A stretch of DNA of 64,000 nucleotides from Diplonema japonicum (Eukaryota; Protista; Euglenozoa: Diplonemea). Below are positions 11,521-63,690 of this stretch, one piece after another. The notes under the pieces are model-generated. The model saw only the letters and a list, made by a program, of their open reading frames with translations, made no database searches and was not told the origin of the DNA. Position 1 is the first letter of the stretch. Each line of letters starts with the position of its first letter. The translations under genes were made by a program, and so were the position numbers. The stretch lies in the NCBI GenBank assembly GCA_964019335.1, contig OZ025687.1:62001-126000 (forward strand), in the 5' to 3' direction.

Positions 11521-11830
11521 AAAAAAAAAAATCGATGAAGTTTCAGTGTGCAAGGTGCTCACTGTCTAAGAAATCCATCCTATCGGTCACCGTTCTGCGG
11601 TGTTGCTGTCTGGTGCTCCTGTCATAGCCATGTGCCGTCGGGGCCCATGTCGCAGGGTGTGCACCCTCGACTGAACATTGGCACCCTTTTGCTGCGCAAC
11701 ACGGTCATGATGATCATCCTCTTCGCTCTTGTTCGAAATGGGTATTTGTCCCCACCTCGTGTTTCATCTCGCACACAATTGGCATGGCAGTGTCGGCATC
11801 CATTCTCCGCATCTCGACAAGGATCGTCGC
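11521..11830 (-). mobile_element. Degenerate, internally deleted 3' remnant of the retrotransposon family at 38890-45546
   Basis: Shares tttcagtgtgca..ggtgctcactg, atcggtcaccgttctgcgg, tagcc.tgtgccgtcggg and gtgcaccct-like blocks with 38903-39145. Confidence 0.85.
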
Positions 11831-33994: not shown

Positions 33995-34545
33995 AAATAA
34001 AATATATATGAGTTAAAGGAAGTCTTTGTGAGACGCCCCCTTGTTCTCATCTTCTACCTGCACCTATCCCCTTTCAGCAGCGGTTTCTCCTCCTTTGGTG
34101 GTCTTGCCGGCCTTCTCCCCAGCCTGGCCGCTCTTTCTCTTCGTTCTCTCGCCCATTGTCCTTTCAACGCCTCTAGGTCATGCTTGGTCTTCGGTGATGC
34201 AAATATCGCCCTCCTGTTCCATCCGATCACCGCCTTTGTCCTCCCGATGGATCGTAGTGTGTGCACCCTTGTGCTCGGCTCAGCTGGGAAGGCCCTCCTT
34301 CCTTTCACCTTCTTCAGTACCCTCCCTAGCTCCCATGTGTGCCAGATCTTCTTCATCAGTCCATGCAATCTCCTCGCTTTCTGCTGTACTTCTGCGAGAT
34401 CCCCCAGCTTCCCTCCAAGGGTCTTCCCGGTCACGTTCTCGAAATCCAGTGCCAGCTCCACCGTCGACACTGACGTGTTCCTGTTGCCTGCATACCAGCG
34501 CAGTTGCCGCATCCACCTCAGCACCTCCTTCGTGTACTCCCGTAG
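33995..34545 (-). mobile_element. 5'-truncated copy of a second, related non-LTR retrotransposon family (C-terminal domain plus 3' UTR)
   Basis: Translation WMRQLRWYAGNRNTSVSTVELALDFENVT...TRVHTLRSIG...GWNRRAIF aligns by eye with 38944-39567 (WLRGLRWYDGKKKTSVTTMELAIDYEQTT...SRVHTLRHLG...GYDRRPLF). Its 3' UTR recurs at 45900-46015. Confidence 0.85.
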
Positions 34546-34737: not shown

Positions 34738-36331
34738 TCACACGAACTTGCGCGATTCTATGACATCACGCCGAAGGCAAGCTTCAAGGAAGGTGACCCC
34801 GAGGTCCATGGCGAACTTTCCTTCTGGGCAGTAGTGGTAGAACCTGTGTGGCGGTGAGGGGGGGAAAAAAATGTCAAAAAAAAAAAACATACATTTGAAA
34901 CACATGAGGGCAGTGGTCCTTGCTGACAGTCTGGATGGTAACACCTGCTTTTTTCGCCTTTTCAACAAAGGTAATGACCTCGTCCACTAGCGGCTCAGCC
35001 GTGGAGTACGAGACGAAGAGCGGCGGGAGCCCTTCGAACGAAGTGTGTGGGAAGGTTGCAGGTGAAAACTTTTCCGCGTCGACCTTGGAGAAGTTGGGTG
35101 ACTGACTGAACATAGACTTGGCAGCATCGATGATTCGAGGCTCAAGGATGAAGTCCTTCCCCCTGTTCCTTTCCCAGGAATCGGAAGTTGTGGTGAGGTC
35201 AACATAAGGCGACATCAGCATCCCGCCAGCAGGCTGCTGAAGATCCTGGCGCTTCCTGATCTCCAACAACGTCAATAAACAAAGCGAACCACCAGCAGAA
35301 TCCCCCGCAAAAACAATTCTTTCCGGTGAGATCTTCTTGTCCACCGTCAGGTATCTGTAAGCTGCCAGTGCATCATCCACAGCAGCTGGTAAAGGGTGCT
35401 CCGGCATCTTCCTGTACTCCACTGCAAAGACGTTGCAGTTCAGCCTGTTCCCGATGGGGGCTATCATGCCTCGGTAGGATCCTGCGGTCCCTGCTACAAA
35501 ACCACCACCATGGAGATAGAAGATCAGTGGTGGGTGGCCCTCGGGTTCTAACGATGTCCGCATGTAATGGCAGACGACCTCTCTTGAAGGGTTCTCCGCC
35601 TTCACCATCCATGTGTCTCTGTGAATGGCTTTCTTGTACCAAAAGAGAATGGCATAGCCCTCGCAGGTCTTCCTGAACATCTCAATGGTGTACACTGAGC
35701 CGCGTTGTCTGGTCAGCTTTACGAAGAACTCAAGGGCACGGAGTTGTGGTGAGGGCTTGCCGTTAGGTTTGACAATCTTGAAGATCTGAGTTGCAATGAA
35801 ATGGCCGACGCCAAGGACATGGAAGAGAACCGCACATGTTGTGTTGTTGATGAGGTTCTTCATTCTTTTAACCTTGTCGGTGCCGCTGAGGAGGATGTAC
35901 AGCGAGAGAGGCATCCATATCGGGGAGGCGATGAACGTTGCGAAGATCAGCAATGGCATTATGCCCGACACCACCAGTACCAAAGGGACCGTGATGAAGA
36001 CCAACCCCATGGGCACCACCACCGCAATCAAGGCCACCGTCGCCGCGTACCTCCAGAAATGCTTCTCAAAATCCTTTCTTAGAAAAACCAGCACCTCCTT
36101 CACGGTCCACCCGTGCTGTTCGGGTTCTTCCCTCTTGGCCTCGTCCTCTGGTATGCGCTCGTCTTGTCGGTTAGCGCTGTCCTTGACGACATCTTTCACA
36201 GCTTCCTCCACGGCAGCTCCTGGTAGCGTGGCCGTAGCAGCTGTAGCGGCATCTCTTGTGATATGCTGACCGTTTCCTTCGGCCTGCTGACCGTTTCCTT
36301 CAGCGGCGGTGGATTTACGTTTCTTCGCCAT
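34738..36331 (-). CDS. Hormone-sensitive-lipase-family alpha/beta hydrolase with N-terminal membrane segments; intron 34844-34892
   Basis: HGGG oxyanion motif, GDSAG nucleophile motif, EYRKMPEHPLPAAVDD, HVFQ. Confidence 0.9.
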
Positions 36332-38615: not shown

Positions 38616-38943
38616 ATCACCCTTTTCACAAGGGTAACAAAGAAACCCGGGAAGAAATGCGTCCTGCGCCTGTGATAAGGTTTCTCCCGATTTTCTTTAA
38701 CTCTTGTGGCCGTTTCTTTTGCACTCAGACCCACAGACCGGAGTGCAAAAAATTCGGAAACTCAATCGAGATTAAGAACAACTACAACAAAAAGAACAAC
38801 CGGTTACATTTCTATTTTGGCCAGGTCCGTGCAATCGCACTGAAGCTGTTTCCCCCCCCCTTCTTTTTCTTCTCTTCTCTCACTAAAGAAAAACTCGATA
38901 AAATTTCAGTGTGCATGGGGGTGCTCACTGTTCAGGTAGAAAT

Positions 38944-39600
38944 TCACACTAATCGGTCACCGTTCTGCGGTTGCTGTCTGGTGCCTGCGGTGGCTGTTTG
39001 TCGCGATGAGATGGACGGCATCTGGGCGAGAAACACTGCTTGGAGTCGTGCTAGGTAGGGGGGGGTTTGGCTCGAGGAGAAGAGTGGTCTCCTGTCGTAG
39101 CCGTGTGCCGTCGGGCCCCCAAGATGTCGAAGGGTATGCACCCTTGATTTGGCGTTGGCGGGGAAGGCTGACCTTCCACAGCGTGCTGAGCATTTCTGGA
39201 TGCGACCCAAGATGTATCGCATCCTTGCGGCCTTCTCCGTGAGCAGGTCCTGATCGTCGAGGGGACCTATGAGTGACCGGCGGGTGGTCTGCTCATAGTC
39301 TATGGCGAGTTCCATTGTAGTGACGGAAGTTTTCTTCTTACCATCGTACCATCGTAGGCCTCTTAGCCACTTGAGGACGTTCTTCAGATGAAAGGTCAGG
39401 ACCGCGCCTGACGCCCCGTTCGCCTTCAGCAACGCTTCCGTCGGAACATCATGTTGCCTCCCTGTCGTTACCTCATCCCAAGGGTTGGAGGTGAGCACTC
39501 TCTTGCTTTTTTCCGCTGCTCTGGCGTCACGGACCGTCACTACTTTCAGGAGGTATTGTTGCACCATCCTGGCACGTTCTTTCCCTGCTTTGTCCTCTTG
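38944..39600 (-). CDS. C-terminal domain of the retrotransposon pol protein, offset by a +1 frameshift near 39595-39600
   Basis: This frame is open from ~39602 (QEDKAGKERARMVQQYLLKVV...) and is homologous to the remnant at 34054-34545. Confidence 0.75.
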   Translation of the reverse strand, partial: QEDKAGKERARMVQQYLLKVVTVRDARAAEKSKRVLTSNPWDEVTTGRQHDVPTEALLKANGASGAVLTFHLKNVLKWLRGLRWYDGKKKTSVTTMELAIDYEQTTRRSLIGPLDDQDLLTEKAARMRYILGRIQKCSARCGRSAFPANAKSRVHTLRHLGGPTAHGYDRRPLFSSSQTPPYLARLQAVFLAQMPSISSRQTATAGTRQQPQNGDRLV

Positions 39601-42600
39601 GGACTATCCCGTGAAGGGCTGTGGCAGCTGGGAGGCCTTCTCGCTTCACCTCTGCGTATTGCTCGCTTTCCAACACACTCCTTGCCGGCTCGCACTCCCA
39701 CAGTGCATGCTCCGTCATGCTGGTCGTTGTCTGGGACCGGTGGTCGCAAACGTCACACGCTAATGCTGGGTTTTCCACACCAGGGCCATCCAATTTTCTC
39801 CCCCACACCCTCGGGTGAGTCGTGAACACTGCACCACTAATGATGCGCCGCAACCTAAAGGACACCAACGGTCTCCGGGCCTGGAGCTTTTTCCACCAAT
39901 AGTTCGTGGACGGGCACGCCCCTGCCTCCATCCCCACGAAGGTTGATCTCTTCTCGATCAGCCTCTTCGCAACTGCCGGTCTGATGGCTTGCCTCACTTT
40001 GTGAGCCACCGCTGTATCTCCGTGCAGGTCGGCCACAAAGGACCATCCCTTCCCCAGAAAGGGGAGCCATCTGTTCCGCAGGACTCCAATCGGACCCATC
40101 ACCTCATCGTCATCACGGTCCTGGTATAGACCAATGATCTCACCAACACGCTGCCGCAAACGCGGAGAGGCCAGGCTCTCCCGGACCAAGCTGTTTATCG
40201 TTCCGTAGATGACCTTCGACAGCGGATGTGCCGTATGCCCTGGCAGCAGAACGCTCAGTACAGACACGGGGTTTCTCATCCCGAACTGGGGGCCCCACAG
40301 GGAGACCACTGCCGCTGTACACATCTTCTTCAGCTGGTCGTCCGAGGGTGCCGCATACGTTGCTCCGTACAGACACGACGGTAGCACAGTGCTCGTCAAC
40401 ATCGTCGACTTGTTCTCAAACCCTAGTGGCAAAGCTCCGAGACGGGTCAGGCGTCCCTCCGCTGCGTCCAGCTTGTCCAGCCTGTGATTCCCATCCATGC
40501 TCAGGTTCACGCCAAGTGATTTGATCTCCCCAGCTACCTTGAACGAGGAACCGGTGCATACTAAACTAGGGCCGATCTCGTTTTTCGTCGAGAATCCCTG
40601 CGACTTCTTTCCGTTGAGGCGCATCTCTGTCCGGTCCCCGAACTCGATCACCTTGTTGGTCGCCCTTGTCAGGACCTCCGCTAAACGCGCCAGGAGGTAC
40701 ACGTCATCCGCGTACGAAAGTGACCAAGCTCCTGGTACTTCCGTCATCACGCACTTCACCATCACCGACACCAAGGCGTTCACCATGATTACCGAGATGG
40801 GGCACCCTTGCAGGATACCATTCGTCACTCGGAACTCTGAGCCAACACCTGTCGGGAAACGGAATCGCCGCTTCAGGTTCGCATACATAGCTTTCAAGGG
40901 GGTCAGTATCCGCTCGTGCAAACCGAGATCTTGCATCAGGCCAAAAGCTATCTGCTGTGGGACTCTGTCGAAGCACTTGACAAAATCCAACGCAATGCCG
41001 TTGAGAGGGGTGCCTGTCAACAGCGCCTCTTCGAGCTGTGTACTGAGCTCCATCAGAATGCTATCCGTGCCTCTCTTCGGTCTGAAACCATGCTGAGAGT
41101 CGTCGATCCACTTCTCTTGCCACAGCGTGATGTCACGCAGCCTCGCACATGCCCACAGCCGATAGACCGCGCTCGTGACTGTGATCGGCCGATGGTTCAG
41201 AGGAGTCCTCTCGCCACCCTTCGGGATCAACGTCACCAGCGCTGTCAGGAGTGCTTTCGGCCACTTCCCTGTCGTCTCGACTGCGTTGAACAGCTCGGCC
41301 CAAGCATCCAGCAGTACTACCGGCATGGCACGCAGTTCCGCCATCCTCCATCCATCCACCCCTGGAGCCGTTCTCGTTGACTTCTTGGCCAACACCGCCC
41401 TCAGATCCTCTCCTGTAAGTGGTCGAAGTTCCATCTTCTGCGACACGATGTACTCCCTGTACCTCGTTCTAAAGGCGTTGTACTGCGGCTCTCCTCGATC
41501 CCCACCGTACAGCTGAAAAATAGGGTCCCACTCCTTGTGCATCATCTTGTCCATCTCTTCAAGATCTGCCGTGAGAACCCCGTCGCCTTCCACTGCCTGC
41601 GTTGCTGATGCCGTTGTGCCCTTCACGAAGGCGGTCACCCTCTTCCGTTCCTCCTTGAAGTGGGTGTTGATCCTCTCTTCATACTTCCTTTCACGCTCGA
41701 CCCTCGCGTCCTTTGCGATCACTCGCGCCAGAGCGGACAGGTCGTCGTCTAGGCGTTGAAGTTTGATGATAATCGTTTCAAAATTGTCCTTCATCAGACC
41801 CACCTCGCATCTCGGAAGCTGCGGGAGCTTCGCTAACACCTTTATAGCATTCGCCCAAGTCCTCAGCAGCTGCTCCGGCATGTTGCTTGCTAGTCCCCTG
41901 TCGAGCAAATCTTGGACGCCCGCAAGGATGTGCGAGACTTTCCGCTTCACCTCGGCGATGCACTTCTGCCAGCCCACTGCCGCACCTGTCGCCTCAACCA
42001 CAGATTTCGCCGACAGGCACTTCTCCTTTGGTTGTCGCGCCACGCTTCTCCCGACGTAGGCCCTCCGTCTCACCGCTGGCAGGTCCCCGATGCAGCATTC
42101 CTCCGAAACGCACGCTAACGTACTATACGCATCGTCAATGTCGCCGTCGCCCAGCTTCTGCGCAAATCCCCCGACCTGTAGCAGCTCAGCAACTCGGTCA
42201 CCATCAGCAGCTTCCATCGGCAACTCCCTCGGGACGAAGTATTTCCTCGTCATGCACTTGAGGGCCGGGATCCGGAGCTGGATTGAGAGGCAGCGGTGCT
42301 CGTTGGTGTAGACTGCGTCGTGTACCCACACCTTCTGTAGGCCTGCCGCCGCGATCGGGTTCAGCAGAACGTAGTCGATACGCGTCTTCGTGTTGGTGGC
42401 CTGCCTGGCAAAGGTGTGGCATGGTTCCACGCCATCCCTCTCGGCTTGCAGCATAGCAGCATCCACCCAATCGCTCCCCACCGCCTGTTGTAGCACTCCC
42501 GACTGTGACACCGCGGTGTTGAAATCGCCTGCCACGATGATCGGTACGTCACCGAGGACGCATCTCATCTTGTTCAGGACCTTATCCAGCAGAGCCTCCC

Positions 42601-43057
42601 GCTGGTGCTTGCCGTGACCGCCCGAGTGACAGTAGACTACGATCAGGTGTAACCACATATCTCGACCATCTAGGTTGATCATCGAGTGTACCCACCTGTT
42701 GTCGTCAGCTCTTCCTGCCGTATCTTTTACCAGAGCAGGTCGGCGTCGCTGCACCAGCAGACCCACCCCGCCCCTCTTCGCCTTATCAGGAGACGCGAGT
42801 CCATCGACCACGATGCCTGGTTGCGGGCTCCCCCACAACGCGCGATACCTACCGTCGTCCTCGACGTGTCTCCCAACCATCTCCTGACCGTGCTCCGTCA
42901 GCTTCACTTCCTGCAGGCATGTCACGTCGCTCCCCATAGCCAGGACCTCGTCAACCTTGTTGCTCAGGGACCCCACATTGAGTGTGGTGATTATGAGCGA
43001 ATCGGGGTCCCTGGCGCCACCCGACTGGACGTCCCTCCGGACGTCCCAGTCCGCACT
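39527..43057 (-). CDS. Retrotransposon pol region: apurinic-like endonuclease, reverse transcriptase and CCHC-type finger; no AUG upstream of the APE domain start
   Basis: APE: IITTLNV, CLQE, AGDFN, TRIDY, EH. RT: APGVDG, LIPK, HRPI, QHGFR, LDFVKCFDRV, GILQGCPIS, YADD. Finger: CDVC...EHALWEC. Frame open right up to the ORF1 stop. Confidence 0.95.
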   Translation of the reverse strand, partial: SADWDVRRDVQSGGARDPDSLIITTLNVGSLSNKVDEVLAMGSDVTCLQEVKLTEHGQEMVGRHVEDDGRYRALWGSPQPGIVVDGLASPDKAKRGGVGLLVQRRRPALVKDTAGRADDNRWVHSMINLDGRDMWLHLIVVYCHSGGHGKHQREALLDKVLNKMRCVLGDVPIIVAGDFNTAVSQSGVLQQAVGSDWVDAAMLQAERDGVEPCHTFARQATNTKTRIDYVLLNPIAAAGLQKVWVHDAVYTNEHRCLSIQLRIPALKCMTRKYFVPRELPMEAADGDRVAELLQVGGFAQKLGDGDIDDAYSTLACVSEECCIGDLPAVRRRAYVGRSVARQPKEKCLSAKSVVEATGAAVGWQKCIAEVKRKVSHILAGVQDLLDRGLASNMPEQLLRTWANAIKVLAKLPQLPRCEVGLMKDNFETIIIKLQRLDDDLSALARVIAKDARVERERKYEERINTHFKEERKRVTAFVKGTTASATQAVEGDGVLTADLEEMDKMMHKEWDPIFQLYGGDRGEPQYNAFRTRYREYIVSQKMELRPLTGEDLRAVLAKKSTRTAPGVDGWRMAELRAMPVVLLDAWAELFNAVETTGKWPKALLTALVTLIPKGGERTPLNHRPITVTSAVYRLWACARLRDITLWQEKWIDDSQHGFRPKRGTDSILMELSTQLEEALLTGTPLNGIALDFVKCFDRVPQQIAFGLMQDLGLHERILTPLKAMYANLKRRFRFPTGVGSEFRVTNGILQGCPISVIMVNALVSVMVKCVMTEVPGAWSLSYADDVYLLARLAEVLTRATNKVIEFGDRTEMRLNGKKSQGFSTKNEIGPSLVCTGSSFKVAGEIKSLGVNLSMDGNHRLDKLDAAEGRLTRLGALPLGFENKSTMLTSTVLPSCLYGATYAAPSDDQLKKMCTAAVVSLWGPQFGMRNPVSVLSVLLPGHTAHPLSKVIYGTINSLVRESLASPRLRQRVGEIIGLYQDRDDDEVMGPIGVLRNRWLPFLGKGWSFVADLHGDTAVAHKVRQAIRPAVAKRLIEKRSTFVGMEAGACPSTNYWWKKLQARRPLVSFRLRRIISGAVFTTHPRVWGRKLDGPGVENPALACDVCDHRSQTTTSMTEHALWECEPARSVLESEQYAEVKREGLPAATALHGIVPRGQSRERTCQDGATIPPESSDGP

Positions 43058-43060
43058 TCA
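43023..43060 (-). promoter_or_regulatory. UGA plus 6-nt spacer plus 12-bp hairpin: candidate stop-codon readthrough signal
   Basis: Sense strand UGA AGUGCG GACUGG(G)ACGUCC GGAG GGACGUCCAGUC lies between the in-frame ORF1 and pol. Confidence 0.6.
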
Positions 43061-45388
43061 ATTGAACTCGGTGTCGATGTCCTGGACAGCCAGGGGGGCG
43101 ACCATCGGGGTTAGCTGCTGCTGCACAGGTGTCCCGCCAGCTGCCGCGGCACAAAGGGGGGTGCTGTTGGGCATGATCATCGGCGTCATCTCCCTGCCTA
43201 TTCCAGCGGTGGGGACAAGGGCACCTGAGGCCGCTTTCTTGTTGCCCGGCTCGTCCTCGCACTTCCTCTTCCCGCCTGTCTTCCTTGCCGCTTTCGCCTG
43301 TGCCTGCATCTCCTTTTGGATTGAGCCCACCGCCTGTGCGAGGTTGTTCACCGCAGAAGCAATCACGTCCAATTGCTCCAGACGTGCAGCCATCACTCCC
43401 ATCTGCTCGCTCAGCGTTTGCACGTTCTGTTGCACGGACATCAACAGGTTGGCCGTCGACGCGTTCTTCCTCTCCATGTCGACGAGCCGGGCCTCCATGG
43501 TCTTCCTCTCCTGTTCGTTCTCCAGTTCCATCCTTCGCGCCCATTCCACGAACTGGTCGGTGGATGCGGTACCGGAGGTCGCAGATGGCGGTGCCGACGC
43601 CGGCGCCTGCATCACCGGTGTCGTCTGCGGTTTGCAGAAATGCGTCGACTGCCCAGACTGCTGCGCTTGCCCAGGCTGCTGTGTCTCGGTCGCTTGTGGT
43701 TGAGGTTGAACTCCCGGTTGGGGTGCTGCAGTTGGATTCGGTGCTGGCCCAGCTTGTCTTCCCCACACGGCGTTCGGCGGCAAGGTGAAGACCGGCGTGT
43801 TCTTCACCTCCTTCTTCTTCTTATTCTTGCCCACCCTCAGCAGGTCCCCTTCCATCGGCTGGATGGCCCACCTCACTCCCTGGACTGTCAACACCAAGCT
43901 CCTTGGTTCGGTCGTCGCAGTCACCACCCACGTCTGTCTGCCACCATGCCTGTGCAGCTTCTTCCTCACCGTTGCTGGCCACCCGGAACGGCTCAGCTTG
44001 CCCTCGAGCTCCAGCCCGTTCATTGCTACCGGGACTCCCTGCACCTCGTAGTGGGCACCCTCCAGCAGGTCTACGGCGGTCGCTGTTGTCTTCAGATCTG
44101 CATGGCGGTCCTTGAGGATCTGCCTTGCGGTGTTGAGTCCGTCCTTTGGCACCCGAACGCCGTACGTGACAGTCTTGCTCGATTTTTTCAGGGTCAAACC
44201 CCATCCGCCGATGTCATTCTTCATCTTCAGGGCAACCTTCAGAGCCGTGTTCTCCAGCCAGATCACTGGCAGCAGGTCACGCGCCTCCCAAGGCTGCCTG
44301 ACGAAAACGCCGTCCTCTCCGCTGCGCGTTAGGATCGCCTTAACGTCTTCCTTCTTTACCGTGATCGGTATTTCTAAAATACCGTCCTTCTTTCTGCCCC
44401 TCTTAGCGAGGTACCTCCCTGCGCGTTCTCTCAGCCATGCCAGCAGACGCGGCCGAGCTTTCTCGGCGTCCTGCGTCGTCTGCGCCAGGAGAAAAAGCTC
44501 TGCAGTGCACGTGGGCTCAGGCTCCTTCTCCTCCGTCTCCTCCATGTCCTCGACAGTCTCGCTAGTGGGCATTGCCGGGTCGCCGTGCCTTGCCGTCACG
44601 TACAGGCGCCTGTACGTCTTGCCACGTCCCTCGTTTGTCACCAGGAGGACCTCCGCCATCTTACCGCAGAAGTAGGGTAATCGTCCCCAGGAAACCACCG
44701 TCGCCGCTGCCGTCCCCTTCAGCCACTCTGCCGCCTGTCGCTCATCACCCTGCGGCACCAGGTACACCGCGCGCTCTTGCACCGTCTCCGGGCCCTGCCA
44801 CTCCTGCACGTGGACCTGCCACTCATCTCCATCGAGGCACCCCTCGACGGGCTTGCGTACTTCTTTCTTCTCGGGCTTCGAACCACCCTTGGCCACGCTG
44901 CGTAGAGGAATGGGGTATCTCGGCCTCGGCTCATACTCATCTGCGTCCGGCTTCCTCGCTCCTTCCTCCCTGCTGAGACACACGTAGTGGTCTCTCACAT
45001 ACCCTAGCCACAGCTCCTGTGTGGTCACCATCCCACCCACCGGCCTGGAGGTGGTGCACACCAGGCGGTCGTCCTGGACCGCGTACACACAGATCACGCG
45101 GCCCATGGCTCGCGCCAGGGCATTCACCGCCATCCGGTCTCCCCACGTCCCCGGAAGAGCCACCAGCCGCTGGTACTCCTTCCACGCCCCCTCCGGGTCC
45201 TCTCCAATCATGAAGGACGAGAAGTCCTTCGTCGCCAGGTCTGCCGCCACTGCCTCCCTTAGGGCAGCGGCCCCGTCTCGCGCTCCGTGCACCGCGTATG
45301 AGGCTGCCTCATACAAGCAGTCTCCCGGCCTCCTCCCCACGTCTTGGACCTTCCAGCCCATCCCCAGCCTGCCGGCTAGGTCGCCCAC
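43058..45388 (-). CDS. Retrotransposon ORF1: N-terminal OTU-like cysteine protease, central globular domain, Gln/Pro linker, coiled coil
   Basis: OTU-like pattern GDCLYEA...LREAVA...WGD...ALA...ICVY...LGYVRDHY. The frame is open from 45520 and the first AUG is at 45361. Confidence 0.85.
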   Translation of the reverse strand: MGDLAGRLGMGWKVQDVGRRPGDCLYEAASYAVHGARDGAAALREAVAADLATKDFSSFMIGEDPEGAWKEYQRLVALPGTWGDRMAVNALARAMGRVICVYAVQDDRLVCTTSRPVGGMVTTQELWLGYVRDHYVCLSREEGARKPDADEYEPRPRYPIPLRSVAKGGSKPEKKEVRKPVEGCLDGDEWQVHVQEWQGPETVQERAVYLVPQGDERQAAEWLKGTAAATVVSWGRLPYFCGKMAEVLLVTNEGRGKTYRRLYVTARHGDPAMPTSETVEDMEETEEKEPEPTCTAELFLLAQTTQDAEKARPRLLAWLRERAGRYLAKRGRKKDGILEIPITVKKEDVKAILTRSGEDGVFVRQPWEARDLLPVIWLENTALKVALKMKNDIGGWGLTLKKSSKTVTYGVRVPKDGLNTARQILKDRHADLKTTATAVDLLEGAHYEVQGVPVAMNGLELEGKLSRSGWPATVRKKLHRHGGRQTWVVTATTEPRSLVLTVQGVRWAIQPMEGDLLRVGKNKKKKEVKNTPVFTLPPNAVWGRQAGPAPNPTAAPQPGVQPQPQATETQQPGQAQQSGQSTHFCKPQTTPVMQAPASAPPSATSGTASTDQFVEWARRMELENEQERKTMEARLVDMERKNASTANLLMSVQQNVQTLSEQMGVMAARLEQLDVIASAVNNLAQAVGSIQKEMQAQAKAARKTGGKRKCEDEPGNKKAASGALVPTAGIGREMTPMIMPNSTPLCAAAAGGTPVQQQLTPMVAPLAVQDIDTEFN

Positions 45389-45403
45389 CGCTTCTCCTTG
45401 CCT

Positions 45404-45546
45404 GGTGGATTCGCCAGACCCCCCTTTTGGCCAGGATGTTGGCAGGTTTGCCCAGGAACCGCCCTCGTGGAGGCTCCACCTCGGCCTTTTGGTGGCATTT
45501 TGTCTTCGCGACTTTTGATGTTAAAAACCCGAAACCCAGTGTTCCC
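45404..45546 (-). ncRNA. HDV-like self-cleaving ribozyme at the retrotransposon 5' end
   Basis: P1 GGGAAC(45546-45541)/GUUCCU with G1-U wobble; P2 GGUGGA/UCCACC; P3 GCC/GGC; L3 UCCACGAG; P1.1 GG; imperfect P4; J4/2 CGAA. Confidence 0.85.
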
Positions 45547-45603
45547 TGGTAAAAAAAATAATTCTACCCGAAACCCAGTGTTCCCTGGAAAAAAAATAAT
45601 TCT
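45527..45603. repeat. Tandem direct duplication (39 + 38 bp) at the retrotransposon 5' junction
   Basis: acccgaaacccagtgttccctgg(t)aaaaaaaataattct occurs twice. Confidence 0.95.
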
Positions 45604-45672
45604 ACTTTTTCTTGTCAAAAAAAAGGGAGGGAATGATGAAATGAAGTAATCTGAAATTATCGCACCCCCTTA

Positions 45673-45772
45673 GGGCTATGTTGGTAAAGAAAACACGTTT
45701 CCAAGCTTTCTTTTGAAAATAAGGAAACGAAAACAACGAAAACGTATCCCGTTTTCCTACCAAACATAGCCC
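45673..45772. mobile_element. ~100-bp MITE-like element with PIF/Harbinger (Tourist)-type terminal inverted repeats
   Basis: Left end gggctatgttggtaaagaaaac; right end (reverse complement) gggctatgtttggtaggaaaac. TTA on the left flank; the right flank runs into poly(C). Confidence 0.55.
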
Positions 45773-45899: not shown

Positions 45900-46015
45900 A
45901 AAAAAAAAATATATGAGTTAAAGGAGGCCGGTGTTGGCGGCGCCCTGTGAAAAAAAAAAAAAAAAAACATATATATATGAGTTGAAGGAAGTCTTTGTGG
46001 GACGCCCTTGTTCTC
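45900..46015 (-). mobile_element. Two very short 3'-terminal stubs of the second retrotransposon family
   Basis: atatgagttaaagga and atatatatgagttgaaggaagtctttgtgggacgcccttgttctc match 34002-34048. Confidence 0.75.
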
Positions 46016-46373
46016 CTAAATCTCCTAAAAATTAAACACAAGTTTTTTTTCTTTCTTTTTTTTTTTTCTGAAAAACTTTAACAAAAGTGAACCTTTGGAC
46101 ATTTCCTTTTCGATTTTTCCCTGTGTTGCCCCCTGGATTTCACTTACTGAGGAGACTATGGTTTTTAGGCGGGACACTTTACGGATCTGAAGGGTGAATA
46201 AATAAATAAATACATAAAAACTAAAGTAATTCAAGTGCCCCCCACGCTGGATGCTGTGGAAAGTGCGCCTGAGCACCCGGCACCCGCCCGTGGGACGAGT
46301 GAGTTGGCACCTGTGCTATCGGTGACACCGTCCTAGTTTGTTTTATTTTTTTGTTTTGTTTTCCCCACTACTA

Positions 46374-61616: not shown

Positions 61617-61820
61617 CCGGTTGATATCATTTGTAGCCAGTAGAAACCAAAGACAAAAAAAAAAAAAAAAAAAAAAAGAAAAGAGACATTTAAGGGAAAA
61701 AAGAAATTATTTCTGGTCTAAATACTTTCTCCTTTCTTTTTTTTTTTTTCTACCCTATCTTCAAAATGAAATTATTGTATTTTTTTTTTGCTGTAGAATA
61801 TATTTAAAAAAAAAAATTAA

Positions 61821-63377
61821 CCCCTAAAGGCCCGGAGCCTATCTACGGTACCCCCCCATTTTCGTTGTTGCTTTAAATACTCAAAAAAAAGGGCAGCATG
61901 CAACCATAGGAAGGTGCAAGGAAAGGGTACTAAAATTTTCAATACCAGGTGCCAGATTCAGCAGATGGGAACACTTAACTATGTGTGTATGAGGGGGTTG
62001 AGGGTGTACTTTTTATGTCCGATTTTGGGGGGTCTTGTCGTGGGGGGTCCGTGGAGTAATGGCTGGGCTAAAAAGGGCAGCATTCAGCCCTATTTGGTGC
62101 CCTGAACTCTAGGATTGAGGTCAGTCTGGAGACTTTTTGGCTGTGGGATGAAAAAAGCAACTTGTGAGTTTTTTTTCCAGCTGGGGTAGCATGCAAGGGT
62201 AAAAAACACGTTTTGCATAAGGGGGTTTTGCAACAGGGGCACCACGTTTGCACCTTCTTCCCGCACCCAGGAACAGCACAGAGCACCCTCCTCACCTTCG
62301 TTCCGTTCATCATGGTCCCGAAGGTGTGATTTAGGGTCAAATCGAGACGTTTTGGGTATTTCTGGATGAGGGAATCCTCATTGCTAGCGTGTTTGCGCTT
62401 GGGGGTCGGTGACGGTGTTGTCGGGGTGTGTGCTATCGGTTTTTGGGGCATGGGGCATGGGGCATGGGGTATGGGTGAGAAGCTTGCCAACAAGTTCTTC
62501 TTTGAAGCTCGGGAAGCCATAATTTTTGCCACATTCCCTGCTCTTCTTCCAGATTATGGAGGAGTTGGCAACACAGCTTTCCAGGACCCAATAAAAAACG
62601 ACCTTGATGCCCACCGAGTTGTTTTTTCGTGGTGCCATGACTTTTATTGTTGTCGGGATAACACTGTCGTCAACAGACAACCACTTGCCAGGGGTCCGCA
62701 CAGTCCTACACCGGTTGACAATGATGTCAAGAAACCTGCGCATGAGGTGCAGTTTCAGGCCTTCCAAATGTTTTCCAGGTTGTCAAAGGTGAGGTAGCGC
62801 TGTATGTCAACGAATCGGTTTGCTCATTTTCTCGAAAGCCGGGATGCTTAAATTAGAATTTGTTGTCCAGTAGCTCTTCATGTTCGGTGCCGAGCGTAAA
62901 CCCATTAACAGGACCAACCCAAGCCAAATTTTGTACTCTGGGATGGAAATATTCAGATTCCGCTGTTTTTTTGAATCGAAACGACCGGTTCGTGGAAGAA
63001 ACTATGAGCTCAAGTACCGCGTGTGCAAAAAAAAAGATTAAAAACACCCTCCTCATTGGCCGCTTCACTTAGAGGTGTTCTCCCACCCAAGCATCGTTTC
63101 CGGCCCCTCTTTGACCGCCTCATCGTCTTTTTCCCCTTTATCTGACCAGTCGGAGACTCACGTTTTCGCTGCTATTTTGACCATCTGATTTCATTTTAAG
63201 CCAACCCTGCCGGTTTCAATTAAAACATAAATTTTAACGCAAAATATAGTTTCAAGACAAAATAAACCGCGCAACAATGTCATATTTTGAAGTCCAAGGG
63301 CCGTGTTCAAAAAAAAGTACTTAGCGAAAAAGCAAATTTTGAAATAAGGACAAAATGTCCGCGCGGGCCTTTAGGGG
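61821..63377 (-). mobile_element. Internally deleted, non-autonomous piggyBac transposon (1557 bp)
   Basis: Perfect 14-bp TIRs CCCCTAAAGGCCCG (61821-61834 and 63364-63377), each flanked by TTAA, with transposase fragments inside. Confidence 0.92.
62068..63194 (-). pseudogene. Fragmented piggyBac transposase
   Basis: RFVDIQRYL, PGKWLSVDDSVIP (first catalytic-Asp region), FYWVLESCVANS, and Cys-rich tail CAVPGC...TWCPCCKTPLCKTCF..H. Frameshifts and a large deletion are present. Confidence 0.85.
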
Positions 63378-63559
63378 TTAAAAAAAAAAAAATCGGCTGA
63401 TTGTTTGTGCAAGCCGTTTTCACCTACAGTAGGGATAAACGGGCAAGCTGGTTTAAAAAACAAAAGCAAAAAAGAAGAAAAAAAAAAAAGATGTCTTTGA
63501 AGGGAACCTGCAGTATGTGACAGGATCGCCTTAAAAAAAAAAAAAAAAGAGACATTTAC

Positions 63560-63690
63560 AAAAAAAAAGAAAACTCGATAAAATATCAGTGTGTATGAGG
63601 GCGCACACTTTTTTCTGCGCCAAGTGAATGTTGCTTCACCCACTTCTGTGGCTGCTAACCGTTTGGGTGCACCTACCCTGGCCACGTCAA
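63560..63690 (-). mobile_element. Short 3'-end remnant related to the 38890-45546 retrotransposon
   Basis: aaaactcgataaaatatcagtgtg matches aaaactcgataaaatttcagtgtg at 38890-38913, and the hairpin is retained. Confidence 0.7.

Follow-up and report, generated by a model that had tools for sequence, protein, structure and literature searches.

Among described long interspersed nuclear elements (LINEs), the L1Tc/ingi elements of trypanosomatids (Ingi clade) code for an apurinic/apyrimidinic endonuclease (APE) and a reverse transcriptase (RT), reside in polycistronic euglenozoan genomes and are freed from host transcripts by a 5' ribozyme like that of hepatitis delta virus (HDV) (PMC6765202, PMC4035085); they also have short non-autonomous derivatives and a 2A peptide before APE (PMC6765202, PMC4035085, PMC12278014, PMC3708506). 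A LINE copy on the minus strand of a 64,000-nucleotide stretch of Diplonema japonicum DNA (contig OZ025687.1, positions 62,001 to 126,000; the whole stretch is referred to as the window) was compared with these and other systems. An original prediction, made from the sequence alone, had regarded its combination of parts as undescribed. Literature searches returned no description of it, and that part of the claim stands; ribozyme release from polycistronic RNA is already known for L1Tc. Each part has a clear precedent except the LINE-borne OTU domain and the possible readthrough of a stop codon.

The element shares with L1Tc/ingi the traits given above, the release by a ribozyme being likely and the 2A being found in many of its relatives. 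Ingi elements differ in having no ORF1 (first open reading frame), an RNase H, a compact 77-nt ribozyme/promoter and a poly(A) tail, whereas the present element has an OTU-bearing ORF1 of about 800 codons, no RNase H match in a Pfam scan, a T-rich end and a predicted ribozyme of 143 nt that holds the ORF1 AUG. The traits of Ingi membership (no ORF1, with RNase H and poly(A)) are therefore not those of this element, and by eye the L1Tc RT lacks the motifs of the diplonemid lineage. R2 is alike in its large 5' HDV-like ribozyme, host co-transcription and cap-independent translation (PMC6765202), and unlike in its single ORF, restriction-like endonuclease, lack of APE and ribosomal DNA specificity, where the present element has APE and an ORF1.

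Mammalian L1 and SART1 have an ORF1 with RRM-like and coiled-coil parts, a short spacer and an ORF2 with APE, RT and CCHC, as here, and the L1-group trait (two ORFs with a C-terminal CCHC knuckle; the group comprises L1, Tx1 and Proto1) is present. In contrast, ORF2 of L1 and SART1 has its AUG and is reached by reinitiation, and L1 has a poly(A) tail; neither is known to carry an OTU or an extra C-terminal domain. In the murine leukaemia virus (MuLV) gag-pol junction an in-frame stop is followed within a few bases by RNA structure (PMC5009743), as in the element, but there it is a UAG with a pseudoknot in a retrovirus, and here a UGA with a simple hairpin for which readthrough is only proposed. 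OTU domains occur on the mobile-element proteins of Ginger1 and Helitron (PMC2836005), which are DNA transposons and not LINEs.

The main parts follow in the order HDV-like ribozyme fold, OTU-ORF1, in-frame UGA with hairpin, APE-RT-CCHC, C-terminal domain and T-rich end:

38885 to 45546, minus strand: LINE copy, full length (6.66 kb), with two private frameshifts
45404 to 45546, minus strand: predicted HDV-like ribozyme, 143 nt, found with a hand-written descriptor
45496 to 45498, minus strand: likely ORF1 start AUG, inside ribozyme joining region J1/2, out of frame in the window copy
43058 to 45498, minus strand: ORF1, with OTU, an alpha/beta domain, RRM-like domains, a linker and a coiled coil
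43058 to 43060, minus strand: UGA terminating ORF1, in frame with ORF2, unchanged in a contig (42859-43589) of sequencing run X1
43023 to 43051, minus strand: predicted 12-bp hairpin, beginning 6 nt past the UGA
38944 to 43057, minus strand: ORF2, with APE (42985-42356), RT (41227-40505), CCHC (39757-39692) and C-terminal domain
38947 to 39594, minus strand: conserved C-terminal domain, kept across the lineage
38885 to 38943, minus strand: short 3' untranslated region (UTR), 59 nt, ending in a T-run

The junction between ORF1 and ORF2

The minus-strand ORF1 frame is open for 820 codons (45520-43058) and ends at a UGA, past which the same frame stays open for 1176 codons (43057-39527), the C-terminal domain then lying in another frame to 38944. 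APE and then a non-LTR RT share one frame, as in a LINE. The in-frame UGA and the 12-bp hairpin that the original prediction had seen joining ORF1 to APE-RT were recovered at the positions listed.

Copies were surveyed by aligning to the element contigs from 4 of 19 listed sequencing runs (X1, X2, X4 and X6, from 3 studies), X1 being possibly the run from which the assembly was made. Contig depth summed for X1, which is not a copy number, drops from 15372 close to the 3' end of the element to 150-181 in ORF1; this profile fits 5' truncation with many short 3' derivatives, and the existence of an active, young, multi-copy LINE family is considered practically certain. A collapsed X1 contig (42859-43589) with a depth of 181 agrees with the element at every base (0 differences) of the UGA, the hairpin and the leader without AUG that follows. 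The last three residues of a sister ORF1 fragment (protein P0045) are also those of the window ORF1, so the ORF1 stop is considered real. The finding named beforehand as fatal to the prediction was a single ORF without the UGA; the contig and the sister both point the other way.

An active element made of one long ORF, in which the UGA is a nonsense mutation, is accordingly very improbable. The window copy does have two other private lesions, and a fusion of ORF1 to APE exists in the lineage (P0050), but those two lesions differ from the run contigs and the UGA does not, and the ORF1 relatives are otherwise stand-alone. The UGA is very likely a trait of the family and not a mutation of this copy. 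Three ways around it were judged unlikely by inspection: an intron that removes it, selenocysteine insertion (the 3' UTR has 59 nt and no evident selenocysteine insertion sequence) and a reassigned genetic code (UGA ends host ORFs).

Past the UGA, the first in-frame AUG is codon 41, within APE, and none precedes the first APE strand; because no in-frame AUG precedes APE, readthrough of the UGA is plausible. Codons 13-40, ahead of the first Met, are identical to those of the closest relative P0001 at 26 of 28 positions as against 179 of 220 for the remaining APE, so that the AUG-less leader looks translated. The junction hairpin is more stable than expected (z -3.05; 2 of 200 shuffles equally good) and its energy is the third-lowest of 1906 45-nt windows along both ORFs. 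An in-frame stop, no usable downstream AUG and a 3' structure are thus all present, and the proposal that ORF2 is reached by readthrough is retained as a tentative one.

Several observations weigh against it. The arrangement is not conserved: both nearest sisters, P0001 (74% identical) and P0002 (59%), have at the protein level their own Met 13-17 residues ahead of the APE motif, aligned with window codons 12 (P0001) and 11 (P0002), that is 11-12 codons past the window stop, which on sequence comparison would fit an ancestral stop-and-restart. Relatives whose loci include upstream DNA have no comparable junction hairpin (z +1.1 to -1.9), and no pseudoknot is evident at the junction. UGA followed by A is not known as a classic leaky context, and the identity of the stop says little, because UGA is also the usual host stop. 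The UGA is shown to be crossed unchanged in X1 alone, the possible assembly source; the listed pieces of X2 and X4 do not span it, and the X6 contig has 8 substitutions at the junction, of which 7 are listed with none at the UGA, together with 15 unplaced gap letters. A structure downstream of the stop-start is also needed for SART1 reinitiation (PMC5972666, PMC3894237).

With the same element and ribozyme, ribosomes could instead stop at the UGA and, positioned by the hairpin, start anew just past it at a non-AUG codon, as has been proposed for L1 and SART1, so that ORF2 would be a protein of its own. Because ORF2 starts at an AUG in both nearest sisters, such AUG-independent reinitiation is nearly as likely as readthrough, though still only a tentative possibility. 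ORF2 of many relatives begins with Met, in some followed by a 2A, and reinitiation is a described LINE mechanism (L1, SART1), of which the calicivirus form tolerates start-codon changes (PMC5972666, PMC4072516). In the window, in-frame near-cognate codons are available at positions 8, 16, 22 and 23, but they are weak, no overlapping stop-start was found at the junction, and the two codons aligned with the sisters' start Met are buried in the 3' strand of the hairpin. The simplest history would be that an ancestral stop-and-restart junction lost its AUG in the window family.

That loss could also be recent, with little intact endonuclease made and the family copied by the protein of a sister family or by an ORF2 starting at codon 41. 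The C-terminal tail of P0001 is the same as that of the window family, so 3' ends are shared or recombining, and the two transcript-derived proteins of the family (P0003, P0076) begin downstream, near RT. However, ORF2 is intact in the majority form, it differs from P0001 by 26% and is best conserved in the leader ahead of the first Met, and a codon-41 start would drop the first APE strand, which carries a conserved Asn. This explanation is considered improbable.

Known LINE routes to ORF2 are reinitiation (SART1, L1) and 2A (PMC5972666, PMC3894237, PMC3708506, PMC4072516). A literature search, mostly of open-access papers, returned no case of stop-codon readthrough in non-LTR elements, including in the available portions of PMC5009743. 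In the present lineage the junction is variable as judged from sequence, with 2A, an own AUG, OTU fused to APE or an AUG-less UGA. A 2A-like motif precedes APE in 9 of 42 ORF2 relatives, an OTU domain stands directly ahead of it in 4 of the 42, and P0014 shows a weak ORF1 match (E 0.003), then two 2As, then APE. Upstream DNA is present for 6 of 14 related metagenome loci: L001 and L012 (one distant family) have an in-frame UGA, 39 Met-less codons, a canonical 2A and then APE, which, like the order seen in P0014 and the direct fusion in P0050, counts in favour of readthrough. As further points against a shared readthrough design, L003 and L005 have an in-frame UGA with their own Met before APE, and in L007 and L010 the upstream frame is not in frame with ORF2. 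The 39 codons past the UGA differ between L001 and L012 by 6 synonymous and 5 non-synonymous substitutions, a count that does not discriminate. In the same two loci (L001:97-101, L012:685-689) the UGA overlaps a -1-frame AUG that opens a 19-codon ORF, a possible stop-start element. Several environmental relatives (L003, L005, P0031 and P0206-P0210) have ahead of APE a variant of the 2A-like motif that lacks the acidic core.

Predicted ribozyme, ORF1 protein and proposed mechanism

The HDV-like ribozyme of the original prediction was recovered with a descriptor of the nested double pseudoknot (P1, P1.1, P2, P3, with a G-U first pair and a J4/2 cytosine), all elements of which were found. P1 pairs 45546-45540 with 45460-45454 (G-U first, 6 pairs and a mismatch), J1/2 has 59 nt, P2 pairs 45480-45475 with 45409-45404, P3/L3 is 45474-45461, the P1.1 GG is 45453-45452 and the putative catalytic C is 45413. 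This core (45546..45404) is the single one in 64 kb on both strands, and 1 of 30 shuffled windows contained one, a lenient control because the descriptor was composed after the element had been inspected. The X1 and X2 contigs terminate exactly at 45546, the predicted cleavage base; the contig listed for X4 ends at 45499 and that of X6 extends to 45558. Among the variants listed for the span (48 + 18 further rows lie outside that listing), 12 of 12 fall in P4, J1/2 or the unpaired P1 end and so spare the paired core.

Two results count against the ribozyme: Rfam gave no ribozyme match at 45546..45404, where the long J1/2 may defeat its covariance models, and the descriptor returned no core from the 14 related loci, although a 5' end is included in few of them. 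The minimum-energy fold of the span did not surpass shuffled sequences (z 0.68 and 0.12), as is to be expected of a pseudoknot, so that this result is uninformative. Altogether, an HDV-like ribozyme at the 5' end is predicted with good confidence. The AUG at 45498 is in frame with ORF1 in the majority form, which gives 809 codons, and the relative P0046 shares a six-residue peptide encoded by the ribozyme core in the ORF1 frame (a weak match, E 0.025). The L1Tc ribozyme region doubles as a promoter (PMC3383444), so the promoter independence proposed for the element is a hypothesis.

The domains of ORF1 were delimited as follows:

44993 to 45325, minus strand: OTU domain, Pfam E 5e-7, Cys-His pair retained
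43844 to 44512, minus strand: two predicted RRM/ferredoxin-like domains with a small domain between (model residues 284-359 and 433-506)
43277 to 43564, minus strand: predicted coiled coil, from the structure model

The OTU assignment of the original prediction held: the modelled domain (mean predicted local distance difference test, pLDDT, of 67 for the ORF1 model) matched OTUD3 at Z 15.9 (root-mean-square deviation 2.1, 124 residues aligned), followed by OTUD1, viral OTUs and yeast Otu2, an Otu2-40S structure being among the matches. The RRM-like region matched raver1 RRM1-3 at E 1.5e-4 and a middling Z of 7.8. A word-based search with ORF1 returned no relatives, and a full HMMER search 27; the long ones (from D. 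japonicum, D. papillatum and other assemblies) are stand-alone proteins, P0043, P0044, P0047 and P0049 among them without APE, except P0050, which lacks OTU and in which ORF1 runs directly into APE. A candidate ORF1-pol fusion, P0139, was rejected as a host gene joined to an ORF1. RNase H was observed inside the C-terminal domain of P0029 and after the CCHC of P0028, and an RNase H-like stretch was seen by eye before the OTU of ORF1 in P0049 and P0053.

Pfam OTU was found in 9 of 15 aligned ORF1 proteins, with Cys and His present in those 9. The third catalytic residue (Asp/Asn after His) is not kept in the ORF1-type OTUs, which speaks against activity; P0005, P0007 and P0029, whose OTU is linked to APE, do have it. 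On balance the OTU of ORF1 is rather likely to be catalytically active, and from its fold it would most likely act as a deubiquitinase. OTUD3 is linked to ribosome quality control; protection of paused ribosomes by the OTU is speculation. In turnip yellow mosaic virus (TYMV), an RNA virus and not a LINE, the OTU-like PRO/DUB domain both cuts the polyprotein and deubiquitinates (PMC5695851), so OTU processing of an ORF1-pol fusion is possible, if the less likely role. No LINE with an OTU turned up in the literature search, the papers on OTU and mobile elements concerning Ginger, Helentrons and Leishmania retroposons.

Taken together, the preferred but tentative reading is that the RNA is cut from co-oriented host transcripts by the predicted 5' ribozyme and that APE-RT is made by occasional UGA readthrough. 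Host polycistronic transcription would cross the element and the ribozyme would cleave before 45546. The uncapped RNA would be translated from the AUG within the ribozyme into abundant ORF1 protein, RNA-binding and oligomerising, and the hairpin 6 nt past the UGA would let a few ribosomes continue to a rare fusion of ~2,200 residues. APE would nick T/A-rich DNA, an A-rich primer pairing with the U-rich RNA end as a mirror image of L1, and the OTU would most likely be a deubiquitinase protecting the particle or paused ribosomes and not a polyprotein protease.

ORF2 gave Pfam matches to APE (E 2e-11) and RT (E 3e-19), and among solved structures its best match is L1 ORF2p (147 bits, versus 98 for R2). 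The CCHC finger was located. The C-terminal domain, claimed to be unrecognised, had no Foldseek match at E 0.001 despite a confident model (pLDDT 90, predicted template modelling score 0.77); a wide structure search gave weak rows only, mostly winged-helix (best Z 4.5, none reaching 5). As to a restriction-like endonuclease after CCHC, the trait of the R2 group and Dualen, the model returned nothing beyond these weak rows. That the domain binds nucleic acid is a guess. The 3' end carries no poly(A) and a T-rich run instead, in agreement with the prediction. On the element strand, loose contig ends have T-rich flanks both at the 3' end, with 36 records in X4, and ahead of very short copies, with 5 and 5 records in X6.

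The window copy, its surroundings and its lineage

The predicted span was kept at its 5' end (45546) and corrected at its 3' end, which lies near 38885 and not at 38890. The window copy is damaged, with two frameshifts considered private because the run contigs differ from the window there:

45431 to 45448, minus strand: P4 insertion site, window copy 11 bases longer than the X1, X2 and X4 contigs, a private frameshift
39590 to 39594, minus strand: 5-base gap site, the bases missing at 39592-39593 being present in contigs of all four runs
45528 to 45605, no strand: tandem duplication of the 5' junction (39 + 38 nt), element start and T-rich flank

P0003 and P0076 read through the gap site, unlike the window copy. 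As to a target-site duplication, the flanks agree best in an A-rich word of 9 nt. The co-orientation with unidirectional genes that had been claimed is borne out, 23 of the 24 ATG-ORFs of at least 290 amino acids in the window lying on the element's strand. Genes of D. papillatum are described as arranged in unidirectional, probably polycistronic clusters (PMC10161547).

Other repeats were observed in the window. Short diverged copies of the family's 3' end (81-85% identical) lie at 11522-11670, internally deleted, and at 63566-63612, both on the host genes' strand with a T-run at the end. A 5'-truncated copy of a sister family, whose C-terminal domain resembles by eye that of P0008, lies on the minus strand at 34004-34540, and short copies of its 3' UTR lie just upstream of the element on the same strand (~45970-46020 and 45910). 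At 45687-45734 there is apparently a further short repeat, where depth is raised, loose ends occur and a contig is joined to the 3' tip of the element. A DNA transposon remnant, which we take to be piggyBac-like, occupies 61817-63381, with TTAA ends, 17-nt matching inverted termini and broken transposase-like frames. The host ORFs at 34874 (alpha/beta hydrolase) and 36798 (TBC RabGAP) stop abruptly beside homopolymer runs preceded by GT, probably introns.

A protein labelled Diplonema japonicum by its source matches ORF2 without a difference along 54% of the query, and D. papillatum and D. ambulator supply many of the relatives. An RT profile search retained 124 proteins at E <=1e-10 among 7994 candidates scored, the named ones mostly diplonemid and many environmental. 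In a quick tree of 88 rows (from 169 RT domains and loci after length and redundancy filters, with no labelled clade references) the window, P0001 and P0002 group together (support 100) within a 34-row clade (99), and long branches separate the lineage from the small number of named animal RTs that were retrieved. The RT motifs LQGCP and YRLWA each occur in 147 of the 169 RT domains collected and 0 times in the searched RTclass1 reference file, where line breaks could hide some and one supplement file lay outside the search; the 2015 Repbase clade table has no diplonemid-named clade. RTclass1 references were compared by eye (L1Tc/Ingi, Ambal, RandI, RTE, RTEX, CR1, Crack, Hero, R4, CRE and Proto1). 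Proto1 of Naegleria looked most similar among those viewed, as a lead only, and the RTs of Ambal and RandI looked unlike the lineage. The element thus belongs to a large lineage without an assignable named clade and, Repbase/Dfam being outside the comparison, is probably an undescribed LINE variant.

A broader reading, considered doubtful, is that diplonemids and further marine protists share a LINE clade, as yet without a name, whose junction switches between AUG restart, 2A StopGo and UGA readthrough. The window family would be the first LINE with a retrovirus-like readthrough ORF1:pol ratio, having recently exchanged its ORF2 AUG for a hairpin; an OTU deubiquitinase would guard the recoding ribosomes, and priming would be T-tailed and mirror-image.

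How LINEs translate ORF2 is a matter that the literature still treats as open (PMC3894237), and this lineage offers several answers to it among closely related elements of a single culturable genus, which allows direct comparison. With it, ribozyme-released LINEs in Euglenozoa would no longer be confined to the Ingi clade, the LINE protein repertoire gains a domain of deubiquitinase type, and attention is drawn to a large repeat lineage left unclassified in the D. papillatum genome paper, where, in the portions available, transposons were not rigorously classified (PMC10161547).

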